Shown: one piece after another, positions 18,001 through 24,000 of the stretch | Position numbering within the stretch: the first letter of the stretch is position 1 | Layout: each line of letters starts with the position of its first letter | Origin: a virus | Taxonomy: Duplodnaviria; Heunggongvirae; Uroviricota; Caudoviricetes | Reading direction: 5' to 3' (one strand) | DNA length: 37,493 nt | IMG/VR virus record: IMGVR_UViG_2585427621_000010 | Position numbers: made by a program

Positions 18001-21000
18001 AGTCATTTCGGTGCCATCCGCATGGCGGTATTTTTTGTTGATCGCCGCATCCACACGTAACAGCGTCTCTTCCTCATCAGGACGCCCCATAATGATGATT
18101 TTATCCACCAGAAAGGCTTCCTCTCCCGGAGCCCATCCCCAGACATACATCTCAAAACGGTTTCGCTGCGAGTCAATGCCCGCCGTCAGATAAACCACCC
18201 GGGCAGGCACCGCCGCCGTGTAACGCACCACCTTATCCATCAGTACCTGGTGATCGAGTTTTTCGCCCACGGCCTCTTCCCAGGTCTCGCCCAGCGTGGT
18301 GTTCACAAAGGTTTTCAGGCCGTTGGGATCTTTCAGTGCATCCAGCCAGTCATAGACAATCTGTACCCAGGTGGTGAACGGACTGTACGCCGTCCAGATA
18401 TGGAACATGATGGAGCGCGGCGGCGGAATTTCATCACCCCGGGCGCTGAAAAACGTCAGACCGTCACGGGTCCACATGCCCGTGTTTTCACAGATCCACC
18501 GCCCGTTGCTCTGGTCCAGTTCAGACTGATGGATCACGCAGCCATGATGTTCACAGAGGTAGAAAACACTTTCAGGGCTGTCCTTCTCCCATTTAAGCCC
18601 AAAAGGCGTGGACTCATCGCCAAATTTCAGATACTGCGCCTCCCCACAGTGCGGGCAGGGCACATAAAAACGCATAAAATGCGCCGACTCGTTAGCGGCT
18701 TTTTCGATCTGGCAGGTGCCTTTGATTTTAGGCGTCGAGCCGCGAATGGATTTTGGCCACACCGACCCCTCAATACGCTTATCCCCCAGCAGGGTTGGCG
18801 AGCCCTCTTTTTCGACATCCGGCTCGAACGAGGAAAGTTCGTCATAGCAGACCACGTCAACGGATTTTTCACGGTAGTTTTTGGCGGCAGCGCCGCCCAG
18901 GCACCAGAAACCGACGCCCGATGAAAAGCGTTTCAGCGTGAGAGTATTGTCACGATGTTTACGACCCAGCCATGGGGAAAGGTCTTTCAGGCATGGCACG
19001 TTCCGAATCGTCGCCTCCACGTGAGACTTCATAAAATCTTCAGCGGCAGAATCCGTGGGCTGAAAAAGCAGACTGTTTCGGGATTTATGCTCAATAAAAT
19101 ACCCGCCCCCCCCCAGCAACATCTTTGTATAGCCAACACGGGCAGATTTAATCAGATTAACAGTGCGGATCTGATCATTCCCCATACTGTTCATGATGGC
19201 GATCTGGAATGGCAGCGTTTTCCATTCGCCCTCACCATATGAAGATTCTTTAGGCAGATAATAATTTTGATCAGCCCATTCAACTGGCGTCACCGGCAAT
19301 GCCCTTATCAGGGGCTGTAATGCAGTTGTGACAGCGCTCATCATATTATTCAGTTGTTGCTCTGATATATTCATCAAGTAAATCCGGTAATTTATCCCCT
19401 GCCCGCGCACACTGATTTGCCCCCTTAGCAATAAGGGTTTTCAGATGGTCAAGATGGCGCGGTGTTAAATCAGGAAACTGTCGCTGCATGGATAAAGGGA
19501 TGGAATCAAGCGTACTGGATAACGCCATTGCCAGCTTACTGAGGGCAAAAATACAGAACCCGGTGTCAATCAGTTTTCCTTTTGACACCTCATTTTTTAA
19601 CTGCTGTGTAACAGCCTGTTCTGCTGTCAGTTCCCATCTGGCAATAAGCAATTTCTCCTCATAGTCGTCTTCGCTATCGCCATCAGGCACATCGTTTTTA
19701 CTTCTCCTCAGATACGATATGTAAAAATCGCGCCAGGCATCCAGATCCAGTTGCCCTCGCTTATTCGATATCGGGGCACCCGGCAATTTCTGCAATCTGC
19801 GAAGCTGGCGATCGGTCAGACTTAAATGCCTGGCAACTTCAGTCTGCGTAGCCACTCCTCACCTCGCAAAAACTCTCACCTCACAATCACAACAAAACCG
19901 GTCATGTCCGGTTTACATGTCTGTTTTTTGTTCATGTCCGGTTCACAGAAGACCTGTTTTTATATTTTTCATATAGTTAACTTGAAGAGAAACCGGACAT
20001 GGATCCCGGAAAATTTTCATAAATAGCGAAAACCCGCGAGGTCGCCGCCCCGTAACCTGTCGGATCGCCGGAAAGGACCCGCAAAATGATAATAATTATC
20101 ATCTACATGTCACAACGTGCATCTACGCCATCAAACCACGTCAAATAATTAATTATGACGCAGGTATCGTATTAATTGATCTGCATCAACTTAACGTAAA
20201 AACAACTTCAGACAATACAAATCAGCGACACTGAATACGGGGCAACCTCATGTCAACGAAGAACAGAACCCGCAGAACAACAACCCGCAACATCCGCTTT
20301 CCTAACCAAATGATTGAACAAATTAACATCGCTCTTGATCAGAAAGGTTCAGGTAATTTTTCAGCGTGGGTTATTGAAGCCTGCAGAAGAAGATTAATTA
20401 ATGAAAAACATGCTCAATTTGTACCCAACAAAGACAAACACGACCAGAGCACCTGTTCAGACAGGTTTACTTAAACGACTTATATATGACACAAAAAGCG
20501 ACCACTAAAGTCGCTTTTTCTTATGGTAACAGGCAATAACGCTCTCAGATATTTTTTAGCATTTTTTTGACCGCGCGTTTCCGGACGTATTCTGTTCTCC
20601 TGTCCCTTTATATCGTCGGAATACCCGCCGCTCTTCAAATCCCATTCCCAACTCAGAATGTAGTCTGTTGACCGCTTGTTTTATTTCTGTCAGGTTCATC
20701 GGTGAAACCGGAGTCCGGCGCGCCTTACGCAAACACTCTGCTCGTTTCTGTGCCGCCACTTTTCTTTTCTGGTCATCACTTAGCTGTACCATCACTTTTG
20801 CCCATCGTTCAGCTGCTCTCCGGTACAGTCCTTTTTTCTCCAGACATTCTGCCAGGTGATCATGTAGCATAAGTGACCTCCTATTATCTACAGACTGCTA
20901 TCCTGAATTTACCTTCCTTTAATGAAATAACAATAAAAAATAAATCACAGAAAAACAACAAAACAACACACAAAAAAACCAAATAATAAACCCAAATAAT

Positions 21001-24000
21001 CACCTTATTTTATTATTTTTTGAGAGAGCTATTACTGAACAAAAAACGCTGACTATATACTCAAAACCAAACAACTATTCTGCCAATCAGGTATAATGGC
21101 AACACAAGGAATTACCGTGTTTTTGCCTTCTCTGCCCATACAATACGGACATATACTTCATACTCTATTGTAATATTTCCATCCATGCGAACAACTTCAT
21201 TTATCTGTAAATAATATTCAAAATATTTATCACAGAAATCGTTTTTGGCCATGAACTGAGCACACTATAAAGTCCGGAACTGACTCTTTGTTAAATTACC
21301 TTAACGTTACCAGTAACACCTTCATAACAAAACATCACGGTATACACTGGGTACGGATATATTCCTGTGCTCCTTCCAGTTGCTTCTGCATTGCCATCAG
21401 CCGTTCTCTGAGGATGAAATAATCCCGTTCAGCGGCTTCTGCCAGTCGGGGACCGGTTGCATTATCCACGCCGGAGGTGATGGGGGCTTTACGCAAGGAG
21501 CCTGGACAGTTGGCGTTGATGCGCAGGCGCTTACGACCAGCGGCAACATCAGCACGCAGAGTTTCATTTTCAGCTCTCGCATCGGCTAATTCCCTCGAGT
21601 ATCTGGCATCAAGTGCAGCGACATCACGCTGGCGTACCTGCATATCAGTAATTGTCACGTTCGCCAGCTTCAGCTCACTGGCTTTTTTATCGCGTTGCGC
21701 TTTGTAGGTAATGGCGTTATCGCGGTAATGATTCAGCCCCAGACTAAGCACACCACAGGCTACCAGCAGGACAATAATCACCACACACAGAACACGGTTC
21801 ATATCCCCCTCACCCCACCAGCCATGACAAAGTTAAGACGCGCCAGGCAGTGGAAAAGCAAATAGCAACCAGCATTAGTGAAAATGAAATGCCGACGATT
21901 ACACAGAGGATCTTCGCCAGCGTTATGAGCTTGTCTGACATGCTTAATCCTCTTCACGATTTCAACGCAATGACCAGTTTTGCCAGCCCATACAGCATCG
22001 GAGACACAGCAATACCGACCGCCACCCACTTAATAGCAAAAGCCAGCGCTCTGCTGACGTCATCAGTTACAGGCGCTTTCAGTTCAAGGCCGTTTTTCAT
22101 AGTCAATCTCAACAGAATTCGTTTATACTTTCCCATGTTCTCCCTTGCCTTACTCAAGGTCAGAAACACAAAACCCCGTTTGCGGCCAACAAACGGGGTT
22201 TTACTTTTATTCACTTAGTTTTTGCCAGTTCGCAGGATTTCGTGTTATCCGCCAGTGTGAGCAAACCGCATTTTTCAGCAAAATATTCTGCTTATCTGTC
22301 AATTCCCCAGCACGCCAGCGCGCTCTCCTGGTCACGCCGTGAAACCTGACCGTAGCAGTTGTTTGAGCGAATACGGCAGTCTCTGCCACCGTCCTTAATC
22401 CACCAGCGAATCGCCTCACACGCTCCCCTGCGATCACCTGCATTAATTCGTCTGTAAAACGTCGACGGGAAACACTTACCGGGACCAATGTTGTACGGAC
22501 AGAATGACGCGATCCCCGCTTTCTGGGGTTCGGTCAGCGGTACTTTAATATTGCGCTCCACCCACTCCAGCGCCTTATCACGTTCAATGGCGTTAACCTG
22601 GTCGCATTTTTCCTTCGACAACTTCATGCCCGGAACGACAGGTTTACCATCCACCAGGATGGCACCGCGGCAGATGGTCCAGATACCCGCACCATCACGG
22701 TATGCCGTGGTGTGGTTACCTTCTTTTTCGTCAAGAAACTGGTCGAGGATTTCAGGCGCAGACGCCCCTGCACCAATCAGCGCCAGAACGGCAGCCGACA
22801 GGCCGTATCTGATTTTTGCGTTCATGGATATTTATCAGGGTTTATCGATTTCAAATCCCTGGATATGTTAAGTCTTCAGGCCAGCGGTGGAGTCTTCAGA
22901 GAACCCGTAATTATTCCCGGTAGTTTTCCTCTGTAGGTTATCAACACATCCTGCGCCTCTAAAATTACGGGGCGCTTTTCCGGCAACGGACCATCCCCTT
23001 CACATAACCCGGCAGCAACATCCATGAAAAACTGCTTCGCCTGCTTTTTCGCCTCAGCTTCGTAAAACTCCAGCGTGGCACCTTCAGTACGGTCAAGACT
23101 AATCGCCACATCTGGCAACAACAGTGACGGATACCCACCAATTTCCGGTGCCACAGTAACAGTAATCTTATCCGGGTAATTATTTATCCCTTTAACACCC
23201 AGTTCGTATTTTTTCTTCATCGCTTTACTCCCCCCGCGCCGCCTTACGACGGTCCTCTCTGATTTTGAAATACAGGTTAGTCAGATACGTCAGCAGGCCA
23301 AACAGCAGACTCCCCAGCACACCGATTGCCACCCACTGGGACGGAGAGACTTTGTCCAGCAGCTGCAGTAACCAGTATCCCGTCCCCACCGCTGACGTGG
23401 TGTATGACACACCTGTTGTGATTTTTTCCATCTGATGTATGTCTCCGTCACCGCCGACAGAAAATGAAAGTAAAGGAAAACAAAAAGCCGCCAGTGTCGC
23501 CCACTGACGGCCAACGCCGGGAGCCGTGATTATGGCATTCAGGCTCTGCTAAAAATGCCAGATAACATTCCGGCTCCCCCCCTGATTCAGGTTATAAATG
23601 ACACAATATCTTGACAACACCCATCACTGTCTGTCAGAAAATGTACTGCCAGATATAAGTATCATGTGAAACCCAACTATCCTTCTTAGCCAGTATGAAC
23701 CGCCCCGGAAATCCTGGAGACTAAACTCCCTGAGAAAGAGGTAAACAGGATGACTAAAAATACTCGTTTTTCCCCCGAAGTCCGTCAGCGGGCGATTCGT
23801 ATGGTTCTGGAAAGTCAGGATGAATATGACTCACAGTGGGCGGCAATTTGTTCCATTGCCCCAAAGATTGGCTGTACGCCGGAGACTCTGCGTGTCTGGG
23901 TTCGCCAGCATGAGCGGGATACCGGGGGCGGTGATGGTGGGCTCACCAGCGCTGAACGTCAGCGTCTGAAAGAGCTGGAACGTGAAAATCGTGAACTGCG

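Follow-up and report, generated by a model that had tools for sequence, protein, structure and literature searches.

The pchC cassette of the defective prophage Sp14 of Escherichia coli O157:H7 and the AT-rich spacer upstream of the gene

The IMG/VR virus record IMGVR_UViG_2585427621_000010, a stretch of Caudoviricetes DNA of 37,493 nucleotides (the window, whose positions are used throughout), carries a 104-codon open reading frame (ORF) between the lysis gene Rz and the cos site, preceded by a 464-bp AT-rich spacer. This feature is almost certainly the pchC cassette of the defective lambdoid prophage Sp14, also known as CP-933U, of enterohaemorrhagic Escherichia coli (EHEC) O157:H7, with group-1 Pch function. 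The gene is pchC, because its product is 100% identical to PchC of strain Sakai and its surroundings are syntenic with Sakai Sp14. The identity of the gene, its role as a regulator of the enterocyte effacement locus (LEE), and the presence of a regulator and an effector in one defective prophage are already known from published work. The modest novelty lies in the undissected architecture of the pch spacer, whose blocks and paralog-specific differences are targets for the mapping of start sites and operators.

The coding sequence of pchC (20556..20870, minus strand) starts with ATG. The initial annotation had placed the 104-aa ORF in the PerC family by its size and character, and a search of Pfam bore this out: the product matched PF06069 (PerC) with a score of 150.1 bits (gathering cut-off 22.6; E = 2.2e-44), the match spanning residues 1–89 of the protein and positions 1–89 of the 90 in the model. 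PerC was the sole Pfam match, with no further domain, and RefSeq labels the product of identical DNA a 'PerC family transcriptional regulator'. A search for solved structures of relatives of the protein returned none. The 1.9 kb around pchC is present with 100% DNA identity in many O157:H7 chromosomes.

The comparison with the known Pch proteins proposed in the initial annotation, in which the paralog could not be told by eye, settled it as pchC. When the window copy was set against the five pch loci of O157:H7 Sakai (PchA to PchE), both the protein and the 315-nt coding sequence were 100% identical to those of PchC (ECs_2737, prophage Sp14; the CP-933U gene of EDL933). PchB (ECs_2182, Sp11) differs from the window protein only by M58V (313/315 nt shared) and PchA (ECs_1091, Sp4) by L6V and M58V (312/315 nt), so that these two proteins, also of 104 aa, are 98–99% identical to PchC. 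The coding sequences of pchA, pchB and pchC vary at nucleotides 16, 172 and 183 only, in agreement with published data (PMC5931665). Residue 6 is thus L in PchC and PchB and V in PchA, whereas M58 is peculiar to PchC: the other aligned copies, including those of E. albertii, have V. PchA and PchB also share with PchC the Rz–spacer–pch layout, the role as activator of LEE1/ler and the distal block of the spacer described below.

More distant members of the family are readily set apart. PchE (ECs_1588, Sp7) and PchD (ECs_1388, SpLE1), horizontally acquired PerC-family proteins of 89–90 aa in the same genome, are 40% and 31% identical to the window protein, respectively; their influence on ler is slight, and PchE acts as a repressor of curli and flagella (PMC6265319, PMC5931665). 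PerC of enteropathogenic E. coli (EPEC), encoded by perABC on an EPEC adherence factor (EAF)-type plasmid such as pMAR7 (NC_010862), belongs to the same Pfam family and has the same LEE1 promoter target, with an identity of ~47% over residues 2–88. It differs in being plasmid-borne, the product of the third gene of perABC and only ~89 aa long, without the 15-residue basic C-terminal tail of the group-1 Pch proteins.

The host of the gene is the defective prophage Sp14/CP-933U. Over its whole length the window aligns collinearly with Sakai Sp14 (99.8% identity), from tccP to the immunity region (a DUF1391 gene) at its right end, with scattered single-nucleotide polymorphisms and indels against Sakai elsewhere in the prophage, and the two have in common PchC and its coding sequence, Rz, the ylcI/ynfO-family gene, cos, Nu1 and tccP at the end of the prophage. 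The window begins with the first base of the start codon of tccP/espFU (1..1014, plus strand), which encodes a type III effector of 337 aa with 47-aa proline-rich repeats and aligns with Sakai ECs_2715 (tccP). The view in the initial annotation that a single defective prophage holds both a regulator of type III secretion and an effector therefore stands, the defects being those that RefSeq annotates at the identical locus of strain TW14359: a stop inside J, truncation of the major capsid gene, absence of the head-completion genes and a terminase large-subunit gene flagged as frameshifted. A further defect in the same annotation is an IS1203 inserted between an esterase gene and the holin gene. 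Sp14 has been described as defective in excisionase, recombination and morphogenesis (PMC2669165, Asadulghani et al.); it circularises weakly, is not packaged, and is amplified only when Sp15, the Stx1 prophage next to it, drives replication of the region (PMC2669165).

pchC is part of an established circuit by which prophages control LEE type III secretion in EHEC. Published work shows that PchA activates LEE1 only under silencing by H-NS, StpA, Hha and YdgT, that it lowers H-NS occupancy at LEE1 both in vivo and in a reconstituted system, and that, when PchA and Ler are expressed together, less H-NS occupies effector loci, espJ-tccP among them (PMC4764244). PchC raised the activity of ler::lacZ from 1,577 to 7,783 Miller units, or ~5-fold, and is a slightly weaker activator of ler than PchA and PchB (PMC5931665); full ler, espA and adherence phenotypes require the group-1 Pch proteins (Iyoda & Watanabe 2004, cited in PMC6265319). 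PchC, like PchA, would thus bind the AT-rich DNA of the LEE1 promoter and relieve silencing by H-NS, StpA, Hha and YdgT; ler would be switched on and, via Ler, LEE type III secretion and non-LEE effectors, among them espJ-tccP of its own prophage. The prophage carries a type III secretion regulator, the effector gene tccP of the same regulon and a usable cos/terminase.

We further regard pchC as probably a self-contained moron cassette, made up of an AT-rich promoter/leader, the gene and a terminator, at the boundary between the lysis genes and cos. As the initial annotation had it, the gene lies between Rz (21335..21802, minus strand; Pfam Phage_lysis, E = 2e-46), the last lysis gene, with the annotated Rz1 embedded in it (21397..21582, minus strand), and a lambda-type cos (20006..20050, minus strand; cosN GGGCGGCGACCT at 20039..20050). 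The latter was found as a 45-nt match without mismatches to the lambda cos sequence, which 0/100 shuffles matched. Beyond cos follows Nu1 (19346..19855, minus strand; Pfam), and Rz, pchC, cos, Nu1 and the entire late region are all on the minus strand. Convergent with pchC is a gene of the ylcI/ynfO family (20250..20474, plus strand; Pfam DUF3950, E = 1e-19; NCBIfam YlcI_YnfO_N), and between the two lies an intrinsic-terminator hairpin, AAAAAGCGAC-N7-GTCGCTTTTT (20493..20519), which by fold and sequence is bidirectional. The minus strand of this region (20490..20575) folds with –22.4 kcal/mol (z = –3.08), and 0/200 shuffles were as stable. The terminator, the position at a module boundary and the dip in GC content expected of a moron are present, and a promoter has been demonstrated for the pchA homologue only (PMC10101121). 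The bor moron of lambda has the same Rz–cos insertion site, a GC content below that of its flanks, its own regulatory DNA and terminator, and, like pchC, is dispensable for phage growth. However, bor runs against the late operon and pchC runs with it, so late read-through can add to expression of pchC.

The AT-rich upstream regulatory region of pchC, which would hold its promoter(s) and 5' leader, occupies exactly the 464 bp (20871..21334, minus strand) delimited in the initial annotation. At 31.5% GC, compared with 53.4% in the window, it has the lowest GC content of any 464-bp stretch, only 0.04% of windows of this length being as low, and the sole place in the 37.5 kb where such a window reaches ≤36%. 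It has counterparts upstream of the other group-1 genes. The published PpchA primers cacaggaatatatccgtaccc and aagtgacctccgattatctac (PMC10101121) bound an interval that runs from the final codons of Rz up to the last base ahead of the pch ATG, so that by its primer sequences PpchA is the homologue of the pchC spacer. PpchA has been used as a butyrate-responsive promoter in two engineering papers (PMC10101121, PMC7279287); in strain BL21, on plasmids, the fragment gave strong basal and butyrate-inducible expression, its operators and regulatory sites being unknown according to the authors (PMC10101121). From this fragment, which is 94% identical to the pchC spacer, we infer that the latter too has promoter function, and pchC would most likely be expressed from one or more promoters inside the 464 bp.

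An alignment of eight E. coli and three E. albertii copies, in which pairwise identities were taken from the eight, divided the spacer into three blocks. The distal conserved block (21030..21334, minus strand; 305 bp, 34% GC) has a mean pairwise identity of 97.5%, compared with 94.5% for Rz and 98.2% for the pch ORF in the same copies; its core at ~21195..21275 is nearly invariant, E. albertii included, and its divergence from the E. albertii copies is 0.10–0.11, versus 0.20 for Rz. It is followed by a T-rich hypervariable block (20922..21029, minus strand; 108 bp, 22% GC, 56% T on the pch sense strand), with indels and an identity of 82.5%, and by a proximal leader with the Shine-Dalgarno (SD) sequence (20872..20921, minus strand; 38% GC, mean identity 92%). 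Compared with the spacers of pchA and pchB, that of pchC is 94% and 88% identical, respectively, the differences lying mostly in the T-rich block, and it agrees with Sakai Sp14 at 463/464 positions. It also carries a cluster of seven substitutions at ~21180..21205 (CAGATAAATGAAGTTGTTCGCATGGATGG versus CAGGTAAATGGAGTGGGGCACATGGATAG) against all other aligned E. coli copies, which looks like a small conversion patch.

Translation of pchC would start from a strong SD, AGGAGG, at 20877..20882, 6 nt from the ATG; the SD and the context of the ATG are kept in all aligned copies. For pchA, an anti-SD inside the coding sequence has been reported to sequester the SD, and the small RNA (sRNA) DicF to relieve this (Melson & Kendall 2019, as described in PMC7769764 and PMC7873438). 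Two paralog-specific differences lie in this region: base 20883 (–12 to the ATG) is A in pchC and C in pchA and pchB, and codon 6 (20855) is CTG versus GTG. Partition-function folds predict that in pchA-type copies the SD is strongly sequestered by positions +22..+29 of the coding sequence (P ~0.9), and that the A at –12 leaves it more accessible in the window copy. As modelled, SD/anti-SD control may be weaker in pchC than in pchA. DicF itself is encoded on Sakai Sp4 (15733..15784 of sequence L003), near the prophage region of pchA. A DicF gene on the prophage of pchC was considered and rejected, as DicF is absent from both the window and Sp14, although Sp14 carries dicB; the K-12 DicF sequence gave no exact match. 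RNAduplex predictions for Sp4 DicF with the pch mRNAs consisted of unrealistically long duplexes, the same for the three paralogs, and were uninformative.

Several points count against this account of the pchC cassette. A scan of the spacer with a position weight matrix for sigma-70 gave a best score of 10.4, compared with a shuffle maximum of 10.6 ± 1.3, so no start site was placed, and a second promoter scan found no excess of sites in the spacer. The candidate sigma-70 sites on the minus strand are TTAACA-N19-TATAGT (21294/21269) and TTGCCA-N17-AATAGT (21102/21079), both kept in nearly all copies, and TTGTTA-N16-TAAATT (20933/20911); none scored above shuffles. The pchC spacer departs from the promoter-active pchA copy at 5.6% of positions, including the cluster at ~21180..21205. 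No direct evidence was found for binding of H-NS, Lrp or another factor to the pchC spacer. The predicted difference in SD accessibility depends on an arbitrary folding window of 130 nt. Finally, induction of pchC by the SOS response may come about by read-through, by copy number or from a dedicated promoter; it fits late transcription and Sp15-driven amplification of Sp14 copy number equally well.

The last point bears on the role of the late operon. According to the initial annotation pchC is transcribed with the late genes; the co-orientation holds, while co-transcription is something we infer from orientation and from the published SOS induction. SOS induction would probably boost pchC by read-through from the late operon and by regional amplification of Sp14. 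Taken to its extreme, the gene would be a passenger of the late operon without a promoter of its own, expressed only by Q-antiterminated read-through from pR' on induction. It does share its strand with Q, S, R and Rz, with no terminator called between Rz and pchC, and in paralog-resolved RNA-seq it was the group-1 gene most induced, ~8-fold, by an SOS-inducing drug (PMC5931665). This is nevertheless improbable: on plasmids the equivalent spacer of pchA acts by itself as a strong promoter (PMC10101121), uninduced cultures express pch genes and require them for the LEE (PMC6265319, PMC4764244), spacer and gene are conserved together in more than one species, and in the prophage of pchC IS1203 separates pR' from the lysis genes. 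A more serious contender, which we hold to be a real possibility somewhat short of an even chance, is that the spacer is a curved, H-NS-bound silencer, so that H-NS would keep pchC itself silent until environmental signals or feedback from Pch and Ler released it. The spacer has the AT-richness of H-NS-bound DNA, with the lowest GC content of all 464-bp windows and 22% GC in the T-rich block, and H-NS sites in O157 Sakai are AT-rich, 189 of ~440 lying on Sakai-specific, mostly prophage, DNA (PMC4764244); from its AT content alone, binding of H-NS is plausible. On the other side, the literature yielded no report of H-NS at any pch promoter, and the high-affinity motif tCGATAAATT has one match in the spacer, with 2 mismatches, and is not enriched across the window (27 observed, 25 expected). 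The intrinsic curvature that this silencer would possess is similarly doubtful. The spacer has 12 runs of A or T of ≥4 nt, eight of them inside 20935..21068, and can in this descriptive sense be called laden with poly-A tracts, as in the initial annotation; there is no excess, however, since mononucleotide shuffles of the spacer give a comparable count (9.1 ± 2.5, p = 0.16) and the abundance of tracts thus follows from composition. AA/TT dinucleotides have no power at 10–10.75 bp. Their single peak, recorded for 20935..21068, falls at 11.25 bp (z = 7 versus shuffles) and not at the helical repeat; it favours the silencer. A-tract phasing near 10–11 bp, which marks intrinsically curved DNA, was not found in the spacer. 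In a wedge model with Bolshoy/Trifonov parameters, under which a phased A6-tract positive control bent strongly, the spacer averaged 8.9 deg/turn against a window mean of 7.2, placing it only in the top 7% of windows, and its end-to-end distance was no shorter than that of shuffles. The description of the spacer in the initial annotation as curved was therefore unsupported, and so was that as H-NS-bound.

We favour a pchC cassette with its own regulatory spacer over two further alternatives, in which the spacer encodes a product. One is a small protein acting with or on Pch, encoded by a 46-codon ORF in the distal block (21112..21252, minus strand), which has a full-length PHROG match (phrog_2157, E = 1.4e-35) and is intact in all eight aligned E. 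coli copies. Among 5.8 billion proteins, however, its homologues are confined to E. coli and E. albertii, at ≥77% identity; in the E. albertii copies the ORF is interrupted by a stop at codon 32 and, further on, by a frameshift, and its start or C-terminus is altered in other variants. Variable columns are spread 5/4/3 across codon positions, nonsynonymous and synonymous divergence (dN and dS) are about equal between the window and O111 copies, no SD is visible, and neither Pfam nor NCBIfam returned a match. A small protein gene was therefore rejected, the ORF being broken in E. albertii and lacking a coding signature; we give it very little credence, and the phrog_2157 ORF is probably non-coding, an annotation artefact of a conserved DNA block. 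Scarcely more credible is a structured regulatory RNA in the distal block, either an sRNA or a long structured leader, to which the better conservation of this block than of Rz and the standing of O157 prophage late regions as known sources of sRNAs (PMC7873438) might point. A 480-nt fold of the sense strand of the spacer was not significantly structured (z = –1.32), RNAalifold gave a positive covariation term (+2.79) with compensatory changes in only 3/164 pairs, and Rfam returned no family for the spacer even at E up to 5; a structured RNA or sRNA was rejected on these three grounds.

The block structure permits a more elaborate and rather unlikely proposal, offered tentatively: that the spacer is a two-part control region, composed of the conserved distal block (~300 bp, with an 80-nt core at ~21195..21275) and the length-variable T-rich block. 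The length of the T-rich block would shift by 19-bp units and by homopolymer slippage, and each pch paralog would have its output adjusted by differences in this block and in the bases flanking the SD (A versus C at –12). If true, this could account for the unequal input of pchA, pchB and pchC to the LEE despite near-identical proteins. The T-rich blocks of three E. albertii isolates (L012, L014 and L015, ~3250..3335) have successive 19-bp insertions of the unit TATTTTTGTTTGTTATTTA, the longest, in L014, amounting to 4.2 copies in Tandem Repeats Finder; in the E. coli paralogs the T runs vary through indels, and the window copy has weak 8- and 13-bp repeats only. Such variation could tune promoter geometry. 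Purifying selection on the distal block had been considered as well, since in the monkey isolate A25 (L007, 2501..2968) this block had diverged less, by a factor of four, than synonymous sites in Rz and pch, but this inference was withdrawn because the A25 spacer is recombinant: it resembles E. coli in the distal block (d = 0.037) and E. albertii in the T-rich block and leader (d = 0.04–0.06), a mosaic that indicates exchange within the spacer.

The distribution of the spacer closely follows that of the gene. In 5426 complete E. coli genomes the spacer was found at 1875 places in 672 genomes and the pch ORF at 1878 places in 675, with a median of 3 copies per genome and no feature annotated under the spacer; among 50,697 phage records the spacer occurs only in one 3-kb fragment from EDL933. 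The order Rz, spacer of ~462–503 bp, pch and ylcI/ynfO is kept in O111:H8, O145:H28, a panda isolate and a monkey isolate, as well as in a plasmid remnant scrambled by insertion sequences (IS) and in assemblies whose proteins are named E. albertii by NCBI. In the remnant, on the 79-kb plasmid pOkiPb01717_2 (L008, 2033..3277), Rz, spacer and pch lie amid IS3 fragments beside an nleH pseudogene and espS; the cassette can thus leave the prophage together with effectors. In Sakai Sp4 (L003, ~32100..37400) the segment from holin and lysozyme to Rz and pchA is inverted relative to the rest and flanked by IS629/IS1203 and ISEc8, so that pchA is no longer co-oriented with the late operon.

Some further features of the window were recorded. 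It contains six N positions (9035, 9118, 9197, 9681, 36413 and 36421), and a 1.26-kb section (8217..9474) in the region of tail minor protein L and a tail protein, directly before the tape-measure gene, aligns to references at 93–96% identity with 31 gap openings; the assembly may be masked or of low quality there. Rfam matches comprise the ALIL frameshift pseudoknot of IS1203 (24031..24147, plus strand) and, on the minus strand, the sRNA STnc100 (27029..27201), downstream of the Q/tRNA region, three tRNAs for Ile, Arg and Arg (27975..28221), and the sok antitoxin RNA (31137..31311) adjoining hokD.

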